In this document: positions 2,874-19,957 of the stretch, one piece after another | Layout: each line of letters opens with the position of its first letter | Position numbering within the stretch: the first letter of the stretch is position 1 | NCBI GenBank assembly: GCA_019187665.1 | Contig: JABARH010000003.1 | Span: forward strand, 222,982-254,981 | Direction of reading: 5' to 3' | Source of the DNA: Anaerolineales bacterium | Lineage (GTDB): Bacteria; Chloroflexota; Anaerolineae; Anaerolineales; Villigracilaceae | Length of the DNA stretch: 32,000 nucleotides | Notes under the pieces: model-generated | Seen by the model: the letters and a program-made list of their open reading frames with translations, nothing else | Databases searched by the model: none | What the model was told of the DNA's origin: nothing | Made by a program: the position numbers and the translations under genes

Positions 2874-4070
2874 ATGACCAAAGAAACTGAAGCCGTCATT
2901 TTATCCGCCGCGCGGACGCCGATTGGAAAATTTCAGGGCGCGTTGAGTTCCGTCCCTGCGACGCAACTTGGCGCGATCGCCGTGAGAGCCGCGGTGGAGC
3001 GGGCAGGCATCCATGCCGAAGAGATCGAAGAAGTCATCATGGGCAACGTGGTGCAGGCGGGCGAGGGTCAGGCTCCCGCGCGGCAATCGGGAATTTTGAG
3101 CGGCATCCCCGCCACGGTCAGCGCGAGCACGATCAACAAAGTCTGCGGGTCGGGGTTGAAAGCCGCGATGATGGCGAGTCAGGCTGTTCGAGCGGGCGAT
3201 GCGTCGCTCTTCGTCGCAGGCGGATTCGAATCGATGAGTCGCGCTCCATTTCTCGTCGCGGGTCGTTCGGGCGAATTAAAATTTGGAGACCAGCCACTCA
3301 CCGACGCGCTTCTCAAAGACGGCTTGTGGGATCCCTTCGAAAATTGGAGCATGGGCAACGCGGCGGAATTTATTGCGGATGAATACGAGGTGACGCGCGA
3401 GGCGATGGACAACTTTGCGCTTCGCTCGCACGGGAAGGCTGTTGAGGCGCAAGCGGCGGGCCGATTCGCGCCTGAGATCGTCCCCGTGCGAATCGAATCG
3501 CGCAAAGGCGAAATGATCGTAGACACGGACGAAGGTCCGCGAAAGGATTCGACTCTCGAGGCGTTATCCAAACTCAAGCCCGCGTTCAAGCCTGGCGGAA
3601 AAGTAACTCCTGGCAATTCGTCGCCAATGAACGACGGCGGCGCGGCGGTTGTGATCGCTTCGCGCGCGTATGCTGAGAAAAATAAATTGAAGCCGATGGC
3701 GCGCGTGGTGGGGTATGCACAAGCCGCGCTCGAACCGAAATATTTGTTCGCCGCGCCCGCTCATGCGATTCCGAAGTTGTTGAAAAAGATTGACTGGAAA
3801 CTATCCGACGTGGACTTGATCGAACTCAACGAAGCCTTCGCCGCGCAAGTGTTGGCAGATGGTTATGCTCTCGCAGATCAAGGCTGGGATTGGGACAAAG
3901 TCAACGTCAACGGTGGCGCGATCGCGTTGGGGCATCCGCTCGGCGCAAGCGGAGCGCGTGTGTTGACGACGTTGTTGTATGCTTTGAAAGATCGTGGGTT
4001 GAAGCGCGGCATTGCCTCTTTATGTTTAGGTGGAGGCGAGGCGGTGGCGATGGCGGTTGAAATCGAGTAG
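2874..4070 (+). CDS. Acetyl-CoA C-acetyltransferase (thiolase II)
   Basis: Full-length thiolase pattern: active-site Cys in NKVCGSGLKA, the NEAFAAQ motif, and C-terminal GGAIALGHPLGASGAR and CLGGGEAVAM (thiolase signatures). Confidence 0.95.
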   Translation: MTKETEAVILSAARTPIGKFQGALSSVPATQLGAIAVRAAVERAGIHAEEIEEVIMGNVVQAGEGQAPARQSGILSGIPATVSASTINKVCGSGLKAAMMASQAVRAGDASLFVAGGFESMSRAPFLVAGRSGELKFGDQPLTDALLKDGLWDPFENWSMGNAAEFIADEYEVTREAMDNFALRSHGKAVEAQAAGRFAPEIVPVRIESRKGEMIVDTDEGPRKDSTLEALSKLKPAFKPGGKVTPGNSSPMNDGGAAVVIASRAYAEKNKLKPMARVVGYAQAALEPKYLFAAPAHAIPKLLKKIDWKLSDVDLIELNEAFAAQVLADGYALADQGWDWDKVNVNGGAIALGHPLGASGARVLTTLLYALKDRGLKRGIASLCLGGGEAVAMAVEIE

Positions 4071-4123
4071 ACACGTACACAAGTAGACAGGTAAACACGT
4101 GTGTACTTGTGTACGTGTTTACC
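4067..4123. repeat. Octamer-built hairpin element abutting the thiolase stop codon
   Basis: Four direct octamers (GTAGACAC, GTACACAA, GTAGACAG, GTAAACAC) are followed by three inverted units (GTGTGTAC, TTGTGTAC, GTGTTTAC). This gives a perfect 15-bp stem (4071-4085 with 4104-4118) and a competing 11-bp stem (4090-4100 with 4113-4123). Confidence 0.85.
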
Positions 4124-4137
4124 CTCACGGAGACACA

Positions 4138-4986
4138 ATGACCATCAAACACATCTTCGTCATCGGCGCAGGGACCATGGGCAACGGCATCGCGCAGGTC
4201 GCGGCGACATCGGGGTATCAAGTCACGTGCATGGACGTTCAGTCCGCCGCGCTGGAGAAAGCCAGAGACGCGATTGCCAAGTCAACGGCGAAACTGCTCG
4301 AAAAAGGGACGATCACCGCTGAGGGCAAAGCCTCCGCCGATGCGATTCAATATGTGTCGACCATGGACACGATGAAAGAGGCGGACTTTGTCATCGAAGC
4401 CGCGACGGAAAACCCCGAACTCAAATTTAAAATTTTCAAAGACATGGATGCCAATGCCCGTACAGGCGTGATTTTGGCGAGCAACACATCTTCGATCTCG
4501 ATCACCAAAATCGCCGCGCAGACCAACCGTCCCGACAGAGTGATCGGGATGCACTTCATGAATCCCGTGCCGTTGATGAAACTGGTGGAAGTTATCAAAG
4601 GTCTCGCCACCAGCGAAGAGACGCTCGCCACAACGCTGGAACTGTGCAAGGTCATGGGTAAGGAAGCGTGGGAAGCGAACGACGCGCCAGGCTTCATCTC
4701 GAATCGCATTTTGTGCCCGATGATCAACGAAGCGATCTTCGCCCTGCAAGAAGGAGTCGGCACGAAAGAAGCGATTGACGCCGTGATGAAACTCGGCATG
4801 AATCACCCGATGGGTCCGCTCACGCTGGCGGATTTGATCGGGCTGGATGTGGTGCTGTTCATCATGGAAGTCCTGCACCGCGACCTCGGCGAAGACAAAT
4901 ACCGCCCCGCGCCTCTGCTCCGCAAGATGGTGGATGCGGGGTATTTGGGAAGGAAATCAGGGAAAGGGTTTTATTCATACTCGTAA
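4138..4986 (+). CDS. hbd: 3-hydroxybutyryl-CoA dehydrogenase (NAD-dependent 3-hydroxyacyl-CoA dehydrogenase)
   Basis: Starts at the ATG at 4138 (GGAGA RBS upstream). Has the [12 protein letters not shown] Rossmann motif and the typical NTSS, MHFMNP and GFISNR motifs. The listed 4099 start lies inside the hairpin element. Confidence 0.93.
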
Positions 4987-15804: not shown

Positions 15805-15841
15805 TGCCGCAAGATTTATCTTGCGCGCAGAGGCTATAACA

Positions 15842-17479
15842 ATGAAGCAGACCTACGACTACGTCATCATCGGCTCGGGATTCGGCGGAAGCGTTTCCGC
15901 CATGCGTCTCGCCGAAAAAGGATATTCGGTGCTCGTCCTCGAAAAAGGGAAACAATTCGAGGATAAGGATTTTGCAAAAACAAACTGGCAGTATTGGAAA
16001 TACCTGTGGCTGCCCGCCCTGCGCGCGCACGGCATTTTGCAGATCAGCATCCTCAAAGGGGTGATGGTCATGCACGGCACGGGCGTGGGCGGAGGCAGTC
16101 TTGGTTATGCCAACGTCCTCGAAGTCCCCACCGCTGAAACGTTTGCGACTCCCGCATGGAAGCAAAACCTGTCCTGGGGAAAAATCCTCGAGCCGCATTA
16201 TGCCACCGCCAAAAAAATGCTCGGCGCGGCGCGCAACCCAAAACTTTGGAAGGCGGACCTGCTCCTGAAAGATTTCGCCGAGGAACGCGGCATGGGACAC
16301 ACCTTCCGCGCCACCGAAGTCGGCGCATACTTCGGCGAGGCGGGCGTCACCGTCGCGGACCCATACTTCGGCGGAGCGGGACCCGACCGCGCGGGATGCC
16401 GTCACTGCGGCGGGTGCATGGTGGGGTGTCGTCACAACGCGAAGAACACACTCCCAAAGAATTATTTGTATTTCGCGCAGAAGAACGGCGCAGAGGTAAT
16501 GGCGGAGGTTGAAGTTGTAGATGTAAAACCGCTGACAATTAACAGCGGACAGTTGACTGCCAGCCACCAACCATCAACTACCAACGGCACTCGTTACGAA
16601 ATCACCTACCATTCCTCCACATCTCCATTCAAGCGCAAGCGAACAATCCATGCCAAGAACGTCGTCTTCTCCGCGGGCGTAATGGGAACGATGCGCCTGC
16701 TTTTGAATTTGCGCGACGTAAAAAAATCCCTGCCGAATCTTTCGCCGCGTCTCGGCCACATGGTACGCACCAACTCCGAAGGTCTGCTCGGCTCGCTGGC
16801 GCGCAACTCAGACATCAACTATTCAGAGGGCGTCTCCATCTCTTCCATCTATAACCACGACGAGGTCACGCGCGTCGAGCCGGTGCGCTACCCCGACGGG
16901 TCCAGCCTGATGCGCTTCCTCGCCGCGCCGCTGATCGAAAAAGACATCCCCGTTATGATGAGGATTCTGAAATTCATCGCCTGGTCGCTGACTCACCCGC
17001 TCGATTTTCTAAAGGCGCTCTTCCTGCCGGACTGGGCGCACAACACCACCATTCTGCTCGTCATGCAAAACGCCGACAACCGCATGAGATTCCGCATGGG
17101 CCGCAGTTTCTTCACACTCTTTCGGCGCGGTCTGGTCGCGGACGAGGAGCCTGGCTACACGATCCACGCGCAAGTCGGCGGCTCGCACGAACTGACGCGC
17201 GAATTCGCCCAACGCACCAACGGCATCGCGCTCGGCTCCATCGGCGAAAATTTGCTCGGCTTGCCCACCACCGCGCACATCCTCGGCGGCGCGCCCATTG
17301 GAAAAAACGCCGAAGACGGTGTTGTGGATGAAAATTTTGCCATCCACAACTACCCCGGCCTCTACATCATTGACGGCTCGATCATGCCCGCCAATCCCGG
17401 CGTCAACCCGTCACTGACAATCACCGCCCTCGCGGAATATGCGATGAGTCGGATTCAAGGGAAGTATGTAGACAAGTAG
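15842..17479 (+). CDS. GMC-family FAD oxidoreductase (cholesterol-oxidase/choline-dehydrogenase-like)
   Basis: YDYVIIGSGFGGSVSAMRLAEKGYSVLVLEKG is the GMC N-terminal FAD fold. The C-terminal LYIIDGSIMPANPGVNPSLTITALAE is the GMC signature. The ATG at 15842 is preferred over the listed TTG at 15821. The last codons (VDK-stop) lie in the octamer array. Confidence 0.9.
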   Translation: MKQTYDYVIIGSGFGGSVSAMRLAEKGYSVLVLEKGKQFEDKDFAKTNWQYWKYLWLPALRAHGILQISILKGVMVMHGTGVGGGSLGYANVLEVPTAETFATPAWKQNLSWGKILEPHYATAKKMLGAARNPKLWKADLLLKDFAEERGMGHTFRATEVGAYFGEAGVTVADPYFGGAGPDRAGCRHCGGCMVGCRHNAKNTLPKNYLYFAQKNGAEVMAEVEVVDVKPLTINSGQLTASHQPSTTNGTRYEITYHSSTSPFKRKRTIHAKNVVFSAGVMGTMRLLLNLRDVKKSLPNLSPRLGHMVRTNSEGLLGSLARNSDINYSEGVSISSIYNHDEVTRVEPVRYPDGSSLMRFLAAPLIEKDIPVMMRILKFIAWSLTHPLDFLKALFLPDWAHNTTILLVMQNADNRMRFRMGRSFFTLFRRGLVADEEPGYTIHAQVGGSHELTREFAQRTNGIALGSIGENLLGLPTTAHILGGAPIGKNAEDGVVDENFAIHNYPGLYIIDGSIMPANPGVNPSLTITALAEYAMSRIQGKYVDK

Positions 17480-17539
17480 ACACGTACACACGTAGACACG
17501 TAGACACGTACACACGTAGACACGTACACACGTAGACAC
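17468..17539. repeat. Octamer microsatellite, 9 units (GTAGACAC/GTACACAC)
   Basis: Nine contiguous 8-nt units, counted directly. The first two units contain the final codons and the TAG stop (17477-17479) of the GMC gene. It uses the same unit family as 4067-4123. Confidence 0.95.
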
Positions 17540-17684
17540 GTATCTCGTATCTCGTATCCCGTATCCCGTATCCCGTAACCCGTAACCCGTATCCCGTAAC
17601 CCGTATCCCGTATCCCGTAACCCGTAACCCGTATCCCGTAACCCGTATATCCCGTAACCCGTATCCCGTATCCCGTATCCCCCC
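17540..17684. repeat. Heptamer microsatellite, 20 units (GTATCTC x2, then GTATCCC/GTAACCC, one unit expanded to 9 nt)
   Basis: Counted directly. Eighteen units carry CCC on the plus strand, which reads as GGG-N4 periodicity on the minus strand. The array ends 22 nt before the kynureninase ATG. Confidence 0.95.
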
Positions 17685-17705: not shown

Positions 17706-18980
17706 ATGTCCACTTTCTCCCCCTCCCGCTCTCACGCCCTCGAACTCGATCAACAAGACCCCCTCGCCTCCTTCCGCGAACGCTTCGTCATCAGCGACTC
17801 CGAACTGCTCTACATGGACGGCAACTCGCTCGGTCGTCTGCCCAAAGCCGCAGTGGAACGCACCCGTCAAGTCGTCGAAACCGAATGGGGACAAGACCTC
17901 ATTCGCGGCTGGAACAAAGGCTGGTGGGAAGCGCCGCAACGCGTCGGCGACAAGATCGGACAACTGACCGGCGCCGCACCGGGTCAAGTCATCGTCAGCG
18001 ACACAACCTCGCTCAACCTCTACAAACTCGTCATGGCGGCGTTAATGCACCAACCGAATCGCAAACGCATCATCAGCGACGCATTCAACTTTCCCTCCGA
18101 TCTTTATATCTTGCAGGGCTGCGCCAACGTATTCGGCAACCGCCACGAAATCATTCGCGTCGGTTCGCAAGACGAAGGATTGACTCCCGATCTCAACGCG
18201 CTCGAATCCGCCATCAACGAAGACACCGCCCTCGTCACGCTTTCGCACGTCTTCTTCAAAAGCGGCTACCTCTACGACATGCAACACATCACCGACCTCG
18301 CCCACCGCAAGGGCGCGCTCGTCTTGTGGGACCTCTGCCACTCCGTCGGCGCCCTGCCCATCCAACTCGACGCCTGCAACGCCGACCTCGCCATCGGTTG
18401 CACCTACAAATATCTCAACGGCGGACCCGGCGCGCCCGCCTTCCTCTACGTCAACAAAAATATTCAGCAAAAAATGGTCTCACCCATCTGGGGCTGGTGG
18501 GGACAAAACAAACCGTTCGACTTCGGTCTCGATTACGAACCCGCGCCCGGGGTCAACCACTTCCTCGTCGGTTCCCAGCCGATACTCTCCCTGCTGATGA
18601 TGGAATCCGCGCTCGACCCGACTCTCGAAGCCGGGCTGGATTCCATCCGCCAAAAATCGGTCGCGCTGACGGGCTACCTGATCCACCTCGCCGACGAGAT
18701 CCTCTCCCCGCTGGGATTCCGCCTCGGCTCCCCGCGCGCAGCGGATCGGCGCGGCTCGCACGTCTCCCTCCGCCATGCCGACGCGTACCGCATCAACCGC
18801 GCGTTGATCGAGGAGCTGAACGTCATCCCCGACTTCCGCGCCCCCGACAACATCCGCCTCGGGCTCGCGCCGCTCTACACGACCTTCGTCGAGGTGTGGG
18901 ATACAATAGACCGCATCCGCCGCGTGATCGAGGAAAAACGCCACGAAAAATATCCGCAGACCAGACTCACGGTAACATGA
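17706..18980 (+). CDS. kynU: Kynureninase (PLP-dependent)
   Basis: The N-terminal [14 protein letters not shown]...YMDGNSLG, the WDLCHSVGA motif and the PLP-lysine motif [13 protein letters not shown] are characteristic of KynU. Confidence 0.9.
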
Positions 18981-19957
18981 CCCGCGCCGCATCGCACACC
19001 CGCATCATCCACATTCCAAACGCCGAATTCCTGCCGGGCGCCCGGCTGGAATCGCTGCGCGTGGAAAAACGCGGAAAACGCGAGGACCTGGCGCTCGACA
19101 TCCTCGGCTTCAAACCGGGCGGAGCGCCCGCGCTGGTCATGGAAGATGACAGGCTCTACGAGCGCATCGAAGGACATACCCGCCCCATCCGCTTGCGCTT
19201 CAAAGGCGTGAAAGATATTCAACTCAGCGGCTTATATGAAAATCTTGCAGAGATTCCAGCGGAGCATGATACCCGCCTCCTGCGCGATATTTTTGCGTTC
19301 CGCCCCAGGGATGAATCGCTTGCGTTTTTCCTGGTGATGAACAATGCCCCCGAGGAAGCCGACCTGCGATTCTTTGCCGGGCGTGTCGTCGAAGAATCGC
19401 GCGAAGGCGAGACTCACCCGGTGGTGATCACGCGCGATTGGTCCTCGCCGCCAGCCATGCCAGAGCGGATCGTCCCGGACACAAAGAGCCTCTATCAAAA
19501 ATTCGGCGGCGACCCGGTAACGGTAAAACTCAAAGGCAGACCGCATCACCGGCGCCTGTTCATCGGCGGGTTGGATAAACAGACCGAATCCCGCCCGGAC
19601 GTTGACACGGTCTTGAACCTCGGCGAAGAACCCAGCCGCTGGGCGATCGCCAATCGCGCGCTCGACCCGCGCGACCGCTGGTCGCATAAAGGCGAAGGAC
19701 GCCTCGGCATGGATGTGGACGAGATCACGCGCGAAGCCTATTGGGTCACCGAACGCCTGCTGTCCGGTCAACGCGCGCTGGTGCATTGCGTGGCTGGAAT
19801 GAATCGTTCCGCCACGATCTGTTGCGCGGTGGTCATGCTGCTCGAGGGACTCTCCGCCGAAGCCGCGCTGGAGCGCGTGCGCAAGCATCACCCCTGGGCG
19901 CGCCCGGATGCAAGCCACTGGCTGAAATTGCGCTGGCTGGCAAGCACGCTAAAATAA
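18977..19957 (+). CDS. Cys-based protein phosphatase (dual-specificity/PTP-like HCx5R domain) with an unassigned ~200-aa N-terminal domain
   Basis: The ATG at 18977 overlaps the kynU stop (ATGA). The C-terminal VHCVAGMNRSATI matches the HCxxGxxR(S/T) P-loop. The listed 690-aa ORF upstream of 18977 is an out-of-frame overlap with kynU. Confidence 0.75.
   Translation: MTRAASHTRIIHIPNAEFLPGARLESLRVEKRGKREDLALDILGFKPGGAPALVMEDDRLYERIEGHTRPIRLRFKGVKDIQLSGLYENLAEIPAEHDTRLLRDIFAFRPRDESLAFFLVMNNAPEEADLRFFAGRVVEESREGETHPVVITRDWSSPPAMPERIVPDTKSLYQKFGGDPVTVKLKGRPHHRRLFIGGLDKQTESRPDVDTVLNLGEEPSRWAIANRALDPRDRWSHKGEGRLGMDVDEITREAYWVTERLLSGQRALVHCVAGMNRSATICCAVVMLLEGLSAEAALERVRKHHPWARPDASHWLKLRWLASTLK

Follow-up and report, generated by a model that had tools for sequence, protein, structure and literature searches.

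An octamer-repeat hairpin at the thiolase-hbd junction of an Anaerolineales genome and its likeness to S23p cassettes

Between a thiolase gene and the hbd gene that follows it in the genome of an uncultured Anaerolineales bacterium lies a short block of direct and inverted octamers, which begins at the stop codon of the first gene and ends just ahead of the ribosome-binding site of the second, and which raises the question of what the element is and why it sits precisely there. We address this question in the window (the whole stretch of 32,000 nucleotides analysed here), in the rest of the genome and among its congeners. The hairpin adds a further copy to a class of repeats already in print. 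We consider it probable that this 56-nt element is a gene-less, tandem-repeat-armed hairpin of a genome-wide family, with the same arms as a cassette carrying an S23p (23S-rRNA-IVS protein, PF05635) gene, that slippage and tolerance account for its placement, and that it forms a paired stem on the mRNA.

The element between thiolase and hbd

The junction comprises the following parts:

2874..4070, + strand: acetyl-CoA acetyltransferase (thiolase) gene, from the ORF list and translation, with stop TAG at 4068-4070
4067..4122, + strand: predicted RNA hairpin with a 19-bp stem (4067-4085/4104-4122) and an 18-nt apical part, from the minimum free energy (MFE) fold
4067..4098, + strand: stop-proximal arm of four sense GTANACAN units, from sequence, motif enrichment and family map
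4099..4122, + strand: start-proximal arm of three inverted units (NTGTNTAC), from sequence, ending 6 nt 5' of the hbd Shine-Dalgarno
4129..4133, + strand: hbd Shine-Dalgarno GGAGA, from sequence and fold
4138..4986, + strand: 3-hydroxybutyryl-CoA dehydrogenase (hbd) gene, ATG at 4138, Pfam 3HCDH_N and 3HCDH

Read directly, the sense arm consists of GTAGACAC GTACACAA GTAGACAG GTAAACAC and the inverted arm of GTGTGTAC TTGTGTAC GTGTTTAC, which bears out the initial annotation's description of four octamers followed by three inverted units. The ORF likewise places the thiolase TAG within the first GTAG unit, as had been noted, this unit supplying the final base of the Glu codon together with the stop. 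With four units facing three, the locus has the layout of a paired inverted array, in which at least three 7-8-nt units face an inverted set. The window contains the motif GTANACA 21 times, against an expectation of 3.6, and 0 of 100 shuffles reached 21. The thiolase contains Pfam Thiolase_N and Thiolase_C, the latter ending at residue 396 of 398, and hbd starts 16 nt past the hairpin stem with its own Shine-Dalgarno and no detectable promoter. Of the marks of a MITE, no target-site duplication is visible at the ends of the element, the left of which is the stop codon itself; the transposases covered were those of the Y1_Tnp type. A cyanobacterial origin, prompted by the HIP1-like GCGATCGC in the window, was rejected, there being just 135 copies in 3.5 Mb of a genome that is Anaerolineales.

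The predicted hairpin has a free energy of -40 kcal/mol (MFE), with z = -5.9 against shuffles. Two stems sharing 4113-4118 had been described, and both exist (15 bp at 4071-4085/4104-4118 and 11 bp at 4090-4100/4113-4123), but the 11-bp stem is negligible at equilibrium. In RNA the 15-bp stem grows to 19 bp via a G4070.U4119 pair, 18 of the 19 positions being complementary as DNA too; its pair probabilities are 0.95-1.0 against about 0 for the 11-bp alternative, and forcing the latter costs approximately 20 kcal/mol (-40 versus -19.7 kcal/mol). The alternative is predicted only once the 5' arm is occluded, for instance by a ribosome, and then in a 12-bp version. The hbd Shine-Dalgarno is outside both stems and unpaired in both folds, no U-tract follows the stem, which runs into CCCUCACGGAGACACAAUG (tail CCCUCACGG), and a consensus scan of 3800-4400 returned no terminator-like site. 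With the 19-bp stem at a probability of about 1.0, the 11-bp stem at about 0, the Shine-Dalgarno free and the U-tract lacking, the suggested attenuator with alternative folds fails at equilibrium, and the element is predicted by these models neither to terminate transcription nor to mask the hbd start. A search of Rfam matched no family, giving just chance matches to miRNA precursors far below their thresholds. In long composites the arms almost never share unit types, leaving stems mismatched every 4 nt. Sense RNA is more stable than antisense in just 12 of 32 composites, with 20 the reverse (p = 0.31), so that selection on the transcript leaves no G.U signature here.

Stop-anchored arrays across the genome

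The genome-wide map of the GTANACAN family contains 196 arrays in 156 loci, totaling about 12.7 kb, and 121 of the 156 loci fall outside ORFs as called by a crude in-house caller. These dispersed, mostly intergenic copies have one unit consensus, kept at 156 loci and across species while two N positions drift, in a genome whose tandem repeats are dominated by periods 7 and 8. Between co-directional genes, 95 loci are sense-first and 6 antisense, and where both arms are present their order is '+ then -' in 39 composites and '- then +' in 0. For 96 sense-first loci whose two neighbouring genes are co-directional, stop and array are a median of 8 nt apart, versus 74 nt from array to next start; 41 loci have the upstream stop within an in-phase unit, and in-phase placement at that stop among nearby loci has p = 1e-9. 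The proposed association of arrays with gene 3' ends and stop codons is thus supported by a strong genome-wide preference. A simple model of a GTAR seed plus tolerance alone predicts that about 37% of arrays lie at stops.

Orientation set by replication was ruled out, since array strand tracks local gene strand and switches with it several times per contig. An assembly artefact is unlikely because arrays recur at orthologous sites in independent MAGs. The literature on the octamer itself returned primer-like chance matches only, and an 18-mer scan of metagenome contigs for copy-number variation between strains yielded one true orthologue, from another species, and 11 chance matches, with no same-species contig.

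A second array of the family in the window is part of a compound array between two further genes:

15821..17479, + strand: GMC-family oxidoreductase gene, from translation, with (Y)VDK and TAG read from octamer units
17468..17542, + strand: sense GTANACAN array of 9.4 units, same family as the focal element, TRF score 122
17539..17681, + strand: heptamer array CGTATCC/CGTAACC of about 20 units, TRF score 205, near the start of the next gene
17706..18980, + strand: kynureninase gene, Pfam KYNU_C and Aminotran_5, downstream of the compound array

Octamers at 17468 had been read as encoding the VDK and TAG of the oxidoreductase, and translation agrees: the ORF ends in YVDK and stop with GTAGACAA G-TAG, the TAG sitting in the second unit of the array, and the Pfam domain GMC_oxred_C ends at residue 538 of 552. 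This YVDK tail is built of units, as it is in relatives (L136, L125, L129, L121). The adjoining heptamer array is oriented like the downstream arm of another S23p cassette of this genome (G000:C3:226.1-226.7 kb).

Octamer repeats demonstrably change other proteins as well. In NuoI a TGG stands in place of the ancestral TAG stop and units encode 11 residues, the ancestral spacer being as short as 3 nt in one congener (nuoI TAG tcc ATG, G002); in HMG-CoA reductase the terminal ILKGMMA is replaced by ILKTYTSTQVHT; and units lie in frame inside enzymes as GTQVDTYT loops, the 8-nt unit being held by a 24-nt super-period. The idea that repeats rewrite C-termini therefore stands for the GMC, NuoI and HMG-CoA reductase tails but not for the thiolase, whose C-terminus (AVAMAVE[IVML]E and stop) and stop position do not differ among about 30 orthologues, whether these have repeats or not. 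Identity of tail and stop in orthologues lacking the repeat was the very outcome that the initial annotation had set against its own proposal of rewriting, which therefore fails at the focal locus; judged from the orthologous sequences, the thiolase C-terminus is ancestral.

S23p cassettes and the junction in relatives

The genome has 14-15 PF05635 genes, and each of the 14 inspected is preceded by a tandem array and followed by the reverse complement of that array, with a unit of its own. Inverted 7-mers common to both flanks number a median of 19.5 for S23p genes versus 4 for 607 control genes (p = 1e-9); these counts were used in place of RNA duplex energy, which did not discriminate armed S23p genes because the controls were strongly negative too. 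The gaps between inverted array pairs are bimodal, with 40 of less than 100 nt and an S23p gene in 7 of the 11 larger ones. One cassette, at G000:C3:163.9-164.7 kb, has octamer arms of the same kind as the focal element:

C3:163922-164056: GTANACAN array
C3:164067-164564: S23p gene
C3:164663-164702: NTGTNTAC array

Orthologues of 88-89%, at the same locus and with the same arms, are present only in two congeners, G011 and G007; the orthologues L206 and L207 have these arms.

Among congeners the thiolase-hbd junction is seen in all states, namely empty, with a gene-less hairpin, with an intact S23p cassette and with a decayed one. The order thiolase-TAG, arm, S23p, inverted arm, hbd occurs in L002, L004, L005 and L019, while L001 retains the arms around an internally deleted S23p. 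Gene-less GTANACAN hairpins follow the thiolase stop in L006, L013, L016, L030, L043, L060 and L168, with differing unit numbers: within 160 nt past the stop, exact sense/inverted motifs number 4/3 in the window, 5/3 in L006, 4/2 in L013, 4/2 in L043, 3/9 in L060 and 2/3 in L030. Unit copy number thus varies at an orthologous locus between related genomes, as in LSSR and STRR repeats. In L007 and L043, hbd is preceded by an inverted arm of the focal type and the leader CC(C)CTCACGGAGAC, and in close relatives the site holds other repeat families or nothing.

No PF05635 ORF lies between the focal arms; the 18-nt loop contains no ORF, and the element is therefore classed as a gene-less relative and not as a cassette. 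Nor is it a direct remnant of the junction cassettes in relatives, since its arm family is GTAGACAC and theirs are ATAGTCGC and GTAGATTG. Across 14 congeners, related and not independent genomes, array abundance correlates with the copy number of S23p (Spearman 0.79). G005 and G006 have 13-14 GTAGACAC matches without a cognate S23p orthologue; G009 has arrays with no PF05635 detected, and G004 has PF05635 with none of the three searched array families.

Origin of the hairpin and comparison with known systems

Arms of this kind bracket S23p genes elsewhere and the junction itself holds S23p cassettes in relatives; the focal element is therefore probably a gene-less member of a class previously described in Geobacter, in Xanthomonas and in the intervening sequences of 23S rRNA. 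The sense GTANACAN array begins at the upstream stop, and the inverted array ends just 5' of the next gene's ribosome-binding site. Arrays would lengthen and shorten by slippage of 8-nt units and would persist only where tolerated, the tolerated space beginning at the first base dispensable to protein function, often the stop's own G-TAR, and reaching down to the Shine-Dalgarno. Such a limit would explain why units enter dispensable tails (GMC, NuoI, HMG-CoA reductase) yet halt precisely at the stop codon of the thiolase. As S23p-bearing intervening sequences of rRNA and REP elements suggest by analogy, the arms may pair into the 19-bp stem on the bicistronic mRNA, where the stem could serve as an RNase III substrate or as a 3'-exonuclease barrier between both cistrons, and a terminating ribosome would have to melt it.

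We regard it as unlikely that the hairpin is instead a selected intercistronic regulator of the thiolase-hbd operon, whether stabiliser, attenuator or REP-like ribosome brake at the stop, kept because it sets how stable or how well translated the two cistrons are relative to each other. In eight species a hairpin of -22 to -63 kcal/mol lies 0-15 nt from the thiolase stop, whatever gene follows, and because the stop codon is in the stem base, folding cannot be independent of termination; when a ribosome covers the 5' arm, the prediction switches to the 12-bp alternative stem. Against this, equal architecture occurs at 39 unrelated junctions, close relatives have other repeats or none at the site, and a sense-strand compensatory signature is lacking, while the alternative fold is about 20 kcal/mol worse, the Shine-Dalgarno is never sequestered and there is no U-tract. 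An intrinsic terminator of the thiolase gene, to which a strong stem directly 3' of the stop codon might point, is highly improbable given CCCUCACGGAGACACAAUG in place of a U-tract, no consensus terminator in 3800-4400, and hbd 16 nt past the stem with its own Shine-Dalgarno and no detectable promoter. The REP/BIME elements of enterobacteria are extragenic hairpins that bear a GTAG head and lie past stop codons and between co-transcribed genes; protection of the upstream mRNA is their classical association (in part, PMC3733652). The GTAG unit head and post-gene position of the octamers recall such elements, units start with GTAG, GTAA or GTAC, and the genome has seven Y1_Tnp genes, but we give almost no credence to a REP/REPIN mobilised by a RAYT (Y1 transposase). 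REPs are imperfect palindromes of 20-40 nt, each tied to its RAYT, whereas the unit here is 8 nt long and non-palindromic and a hairpin forms only by combining an array with an inverted one; moreover, every Y1_Tnp gene has classical 20-40-nt REP palindromes of its own, none is flanked by octamer arrays, and the nearest array is 1.7-53 kb away.

The arrays could also be putative DNA or RNA binding sites, one 8-nt site per unit, for a sequence-specific protein such as the cognate S23p pentamer or a global regulator, as proposed for the paired tandem repeats of Geobacter metallireducens. Constancy of the consensus at 156 loci and across species, the two N positions apart, a distinct unit family for each S23p paralogue, the correlation across the 14 related congeners (Spearman 0.79) and the homology of PF05635 to the nucleic-acid-binding DGR protein Avd (PMC10053308) are consistent with this account, which we nevertheless find doubtful: some genomes have arrays without the cognate paralogue, G009 has arrays with no detected PF05635, G004 has PF05635 with none of the three array families searched, and a regulatory site makes little sense where units lie in frame inside enzymes. 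There is a similarly slim chance that the element is an ordinary slippage-born microsatellite, a long-unit SSR unrelated to S23p, whose inverted arm and stop anchoring are by-products of tiny spacers and gene-preserving selection. Ancestral spacers down to 3 nt (nuoI in G002), the dominance of periods 7 and 8, differing unit numbers at orthologous loci and heptamer SSRs near upstream stops in Xanthomonas (PMC4692102) speak for it, but it leaves unexplained the 39:0 arm order, the one consensus across 156 loci, the matching arms around S23p genes and the bimodal gaps.

A wider, speculative reading, to which we attach a low probability, is that repeat-armed hairpins and S23p cassettes form one system targeting junctions of stop codon and ribosome-binding site. 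Recognition of a particular 7-8-nt unit would be specific to each Avd-like S23p paralogue, which would promote spread of its arms to new junctions or their RNase III-type processing; the approximately 150 GTANACAN hairpins that lack a gene would be non-autonomous copies, standing to the cassettes as REPINs do to RAYTs, and C-terminus rewriting and in-frame loops would be side effects. If true, this would join the long-unexplained excess of bacterial heptamer and octamer repeats to the equally unexplained S23p family. For what this repeat class does, genome and genus are unusually informative, offering one family that has expanded to about 150 loci under strict rules (the sense arm placed at the stop and the inverted one at the ribosome-binding site), the same arms bracketing an S23p gene, the thiolase-hbd junction in its several states, and proteins altered by the repeats; together these make it directly testable whether the elements move, what S23p binds and whether the stems process operon mRNAs.

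Among published systems, the paired tandem octa- and heptanucleotide sites of Geobacter metallireducens, described as 'putative global regulator binding sites' of classes 1-3 (Aklujkar et al. 2009, PMC2700814), are alike in layout: a run of three to five units of 7-8 nt (GTTGCTYN, TCTCCGTS, MTYCTGA) is opposed, at variable distance, by an inverted set on the opposite strand, in dozens per genome. They differ in unit sequence and lineage; in-phase stop anchoring, C-terminal coding and arms in common with S23p belong to the present family and are unstated in the available portion of that report. The S23p-bearing 23S rRNA intervening sequences of Coxiella burnetii and Leptospira (Warrier et al. 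2016, PMC4990558) have a PF05635 ORF in the loop of a long terminal-inverted-repeat stem that is cut by RNase III, with tandem heptamers (GACAGAT) varying in number between strains, and are held to be selfish. This genome's S23p cassettes have an equal layout, but the rRNA elements lie in helix 45 or 25 and not between protein genes, and the focal element has no ORF, arms wholly of octamers and putative RNase III cutting.

The heptamer SSRs described in Xanthomonas (GGGAATC) and in Nostoc by Rehm et al. (2015, PMC4692102, which also cites the long SSRs of Mrazek et al. 2007) are mostly intergenic between co-directional ORFs, at about 28 nt from the upstream versus about 160 nt from the downstream ORF; some overlap a stop codon, and length differs between relatives. 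Unlike the present arrays they are G-rich and discussed as G-quadruplexes, with no strict sense orientation, stop phase-locking or inverted partner reported there. Tandem repeats of Borg elements (Schoelmerich et al. 2023, PMC9879509) are likewise intergenic with the first unit in a gene end, or encode in-frame disordered repeat peptides, and turn over fast; their in-ORF units are multiples of 3, whereas here an 8-nt unit is read in a 24-nt super-period (GTQVDTYT). The TAACTGA heptamer direct repeats of Beggiatoaceae, Cyanobacteria and Bacteroidetes, listed with cyanobacterial STRR (MacGregor 2015, PMC4679880), are intergenic 7-mers in sense orientation that give stops in all three frames; a number of them overlap the upstream ORF end by at most about two units, and equal reasoning was given there for why forward repeats fit only at ORF ends. 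They adjoin start codons, with inverted pairs in 1 of 170 sets, whereas GTANACAN arrays adjoin stop codons. Four TAACTGA-type arrays also occur in the present genome, about 1 nt 5' of start codons.

Octamer arrays at the thiolase and GMC oxidoreductase stops

The octamer-repeat hairpin between the thiolase and hbd genes is best seen as a repeat-armed hairpin that lacks a gene but belongs to the S23p cassette class, the full cassette being a PF05635 (23S-rRNA-IVS-protein) gene bracketed by repeat arms. Four direct and three inverted octamers are present as the initial annotation described them, with the thiolase TAG inside the first unit, and the window has 21 copies of the octamer motif where 3.6 are expected.

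Features of the two loci in the window
2874-4070: thiolase ORF, TAG 4068-4070 inside unit 1 (ORF, Pfam)
4067-4098: sense arm, four direct units GTAGACAC GTACACAA GTAGACAG GTAAACAC (sequence)
4099-4122: inverted arm, three inverted units GTGTGTAC TTGTGTAC GTGTTTAC (sequence)
4129-4133: GGAGA, SD of hbd; hbd ATG at 4138 (sequence, Pfam)
17468-17542: octamer array of the second locus, 9.4 units
17539-17681: heptamer array of the second locus, ~20 units, after the octamers

RNA 4055-4145 is predicted to fold into a single 19-pair stem (4067-4085/4104-4122, including G4070.U4119) with an energy of -40 kcal/mol, z = -5.9 and pair probabilities of 0.95-1.0 throughout. Of the two alternative stems originally proposed, the 11-bp one has a probability of ~0 and costs ~20 kcal/mol to force; it is predicted to form only when something, such as a ribosome sitting on the UAG, occupies the 5' arm. 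All predicted folds leave the hbd SD unpaired, no U-tract follows the stem, no terminator-like or promoter-like site was found around the hairpin and an Rfam search with it returned no real match.

At the second locus, between the GMC oxidoreductase and kynureninase genes, the TAG of the second octamer unit ends the GMC ORF, as had been claimed. The heptamers before kynureninase (CGTATCC/CGTAACC) are oriented as the downstream arm of an S23p cassette at C3:226.1-226.7 kb of the source genome. This spacer thus pairs an upstream-type arm from one family with a downstream-type arm from a second, and the usual hairpin cannot form. A 690-aa ORF (17885-19957, +) overlaps the kynureninase ORF in a different frame and extends 1 kb past it; only a weak minus-strand ORF (19232-19918) was called there by our gene caller, and a missed gene or a frameshift may lie within 18980-19957.

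Genome-wide placement and protein C-termini

Arrays, defined as runs of at least two exact units, were mapped over the 3.53-Mb Anaerolineales MAG (57 contigs), with genes called by our own dicodon model (2893 genes, 85% coding). The whole MAG contains 196 arrays in 156 loci, totaling ~12.7 kb; 60 loci are '+' only, 56 '-' only and 39 '+ then -', and none of the 156 is '- then +'. Where the flanking genes are co-directional, GTANACAN units read in the sense direction at 95 loci (63 single, 32 composite) and in the antisense direction at 6. Within each contig, array orientation flips several times together with the strand of the local genes, and thus tracks transcription and not replication.

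The proposed preference for stop codons is borne out at this scale: the 96 sense-first loci lie a median 8 nt from the upstream stop and 74 nt from the next start, and only 14 loci start more than 12 nt past the stop. The stop falls within the exact-unit array in 23 of these loci and within an in-phase unit in 41, allowing units that match 5/6 fixed bases; among loci 1-30 nt away, 26/58 are in phase with the stop (p = 1e-9). TAG is twice as frequent among array-associated stops as genome-wide, and other repeat families of the genome lack such anchoring (median 36 nt from the stop). As a caution, 1298 copies of GTAR were counted in co-directional spacers free of repeats and 750 at stops, so that a seed-plus-tolerance model alone places ~37% of arrays at stops.

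The suggestion that repeats rewrite C-termini fails for thiolase but holds for GMC oxidoreductase, NuoI and HMG-CoA reductase. With or without repeats, ~30 thiolase orthologues share the tail ...AVAMAVE[IVML]E* and the stop position, and Pfam Thiolase_C extends to residue 396/398; the thiolase C-terminus is not rewritten. In GMC oxidoreductase, the conserved core ends ...AEYAMS[KR][IV], and in the source genome and five relatives' loci (L136, L125, L129, L121, L110) the final 3-6 codons come from octamer units that share the array's phase (YVDK*, HGNR*, QGNT*, QVDK*, KVDR*). NuoI of congeners ends ...KDP[QRS]D* at a TAG; in the source genome that position is TGG, and 11 unit-encoded residues (WESGDTVKVDT*) are added before the reading frame meets another TAG. 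HMG-CoA reductase ends ...EEILKGMMA* or similar in congeners and ...EEILKTYTSTQVHT* here. At least three sense codons are built from units in 15 of the 96 sense-first loci.

Arrays also lie inside ORFs (27/35 sense, the antisense ones at mis-called starts), where in real genes in-frame sense octamers encode GTQVDTYT-type 8-residue repeats with a 24-nt super-period. Such genes include an ABC ATPase (array between ABC_tran and DrrA_C), diaminopimelate decarboxylase (inside the PLP domain), an M1 peptidase and large membrane proteins; adjoining some arrays are ACACCTG heptamers encoding SHLTPDT. Gaining or losing a single unit would shift the reading frame of such genes.

In-frame array sites: C2:71013-72119, C6:385-1725, C11:56807-58519, C3:21669-23969, C5:85328-96737

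Four TAACTGA-type heptamer arrays (rotation AACTGAT) of the genome are sense and lie ~1 nt upstream of start codons, a placement also reported in Beggiatoaceae. Their sequence matches the downstream arm of a CAGTGAT-family S23p cassette (C1:239.6-240.3 kb).

S23p cassettes and the same junctions in relatives

The genome carries 14-15 PF05635 genes, and in all 14 inspected a tandem 7-8-nt array lies upstream and recurs as its reverse complement downstream; the first usually begins at the preceding gene's stop, and the second ends ahead of the following start codon. Units differ from cassette to cassette and are the genome's most abundant repeat families. Inverted 7-mers common to both flanks number a median 19.5 for S23p genes versus 4 in a control set of 607 genes (p = 1e-9). 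Gaps in inverted array pairs are bimodal: 40 measure less than 100 nt, and an S23p gene lies in 7 of the 11 larger ones.

Cassettes in the source genome
S23p examples: C1:239589-240260, C2:70458-71024, C10:83110-83756, C11:31621-32204, C35:5868-6340, C3:163922-164702
GTANACAN-armed cassette: + arm C3:163922-164056, ORF 164067-164564, - arm 164663-164702

Orthologues (88-89%) of the GTANACAN-armed S23p occur only in congeners G011 and G007, with the same neighbour genes and arms, and G011 is the second-richest genome in GTAGACAC arrays. Across 14 congeners, which are related and not independent and include exceptions, S23p copy number and array abundance correlate (Spearman 0.79). Congener G004 (97% complete) has no match to any of the three repeat families searched and only two PF05635 matches, one below the family cut-off; G009 (only 80% complete) has some arrays and no PF05635 match. 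Both are useful contrasts for what drives the repeats.

Relatives' loci L002, L004, L005 and L019 have, after the thiolase TAG, a ATAGTCGC-type arm, an S23p ORF (PF05635, E = 1e-31, as checked in L002), the inverted arm and hbd. L001, from the closest relative, keeps both arms but has lost the middle of the ORF, of which the final ~110 nt remain (decayed L001:4195-4460, intact L002:4195-4685). The ~12-nt ATGGCAACAA(CA) stands in L002 on either side of the missing stretch, so the loss was probably a deletion between these direct repeats, and L001 looks like an intermediate between cassette and gene-less hairpin. In G007 the cassette after the thiolase stop is another S23p one, armed with GTAGATTG; gene-less GTANACAN hairpins follow that stop in the window, L006, L013, L016, L030, L043, L060 and L168, and some relatives compared have no repeat there.

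At least three repeat families occupy the thiolase stop of relatives, and the nuoI stop of congeners has four different families or none (TAG tcc ATG in G002). Many further 7-8-mer families start at long-ORF stops in 833 kb of relatives' loci, including GTAATTG, CAGTGAT, ATAGTCGC.. and AGTTGGAA...

Origin, possible role and published counterparts

Arm families differ between the focal hairpin and the cassettes seen at this junction in relatives, and we therefore rejected its being a remnant of those particular cassettes. A RAYT origin was likewise rejected: each of seven Y1_Tnp genes is flanked by its own classical REP-type palindromes. These RAYT-like genes (examples at C9:7715-8134, C8:71359-71895, C25:16450-17106 and C3:156089-156733) form a second repeat system, separate from the octamer arrays.

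The hairpin would most plausibly act as a processing or protection site between the two cistrons, by analogy with the S23p-bearing IVS of Coxiella and with REP elements. REP elements protect upstream mRNA. RNase III cleaves the Coxiella IVS, which has a 28-bp stem with tandem heptamers (PMC4990558). Among composites, sense RNA hairpins were not more stable than antisense ones (12 versus 20, p = 0.31). The arms of long '+ then -' composites almost never have unit types in common (for example GTAGACA[CT] on one side and GTA[CT]ACAG on the other), so that in their stems each unit is mismatched at its two variable positions, a pattern that may fit selection against extended perfect palindromes in the DNA better than selection for RNA pairing.

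Long composites, examples: C13:74414-74786, C6:129556-129807, C3:151016-151324

The class of element is already in print though unexplained, and the focal hairpin adds one more example. Paired tandem sites with octa- or heptanucleotide units appear in a Geobacter report (PMC2700814), heptamers near stops in Xanthomonas (PMC4692102), TAACTGA repeats in a further paper (PMC4679880), and Borg repeats start in gene ends or lie in frame within ORFs (PMC9879509). The present genus is unusually informative for the study of this class.
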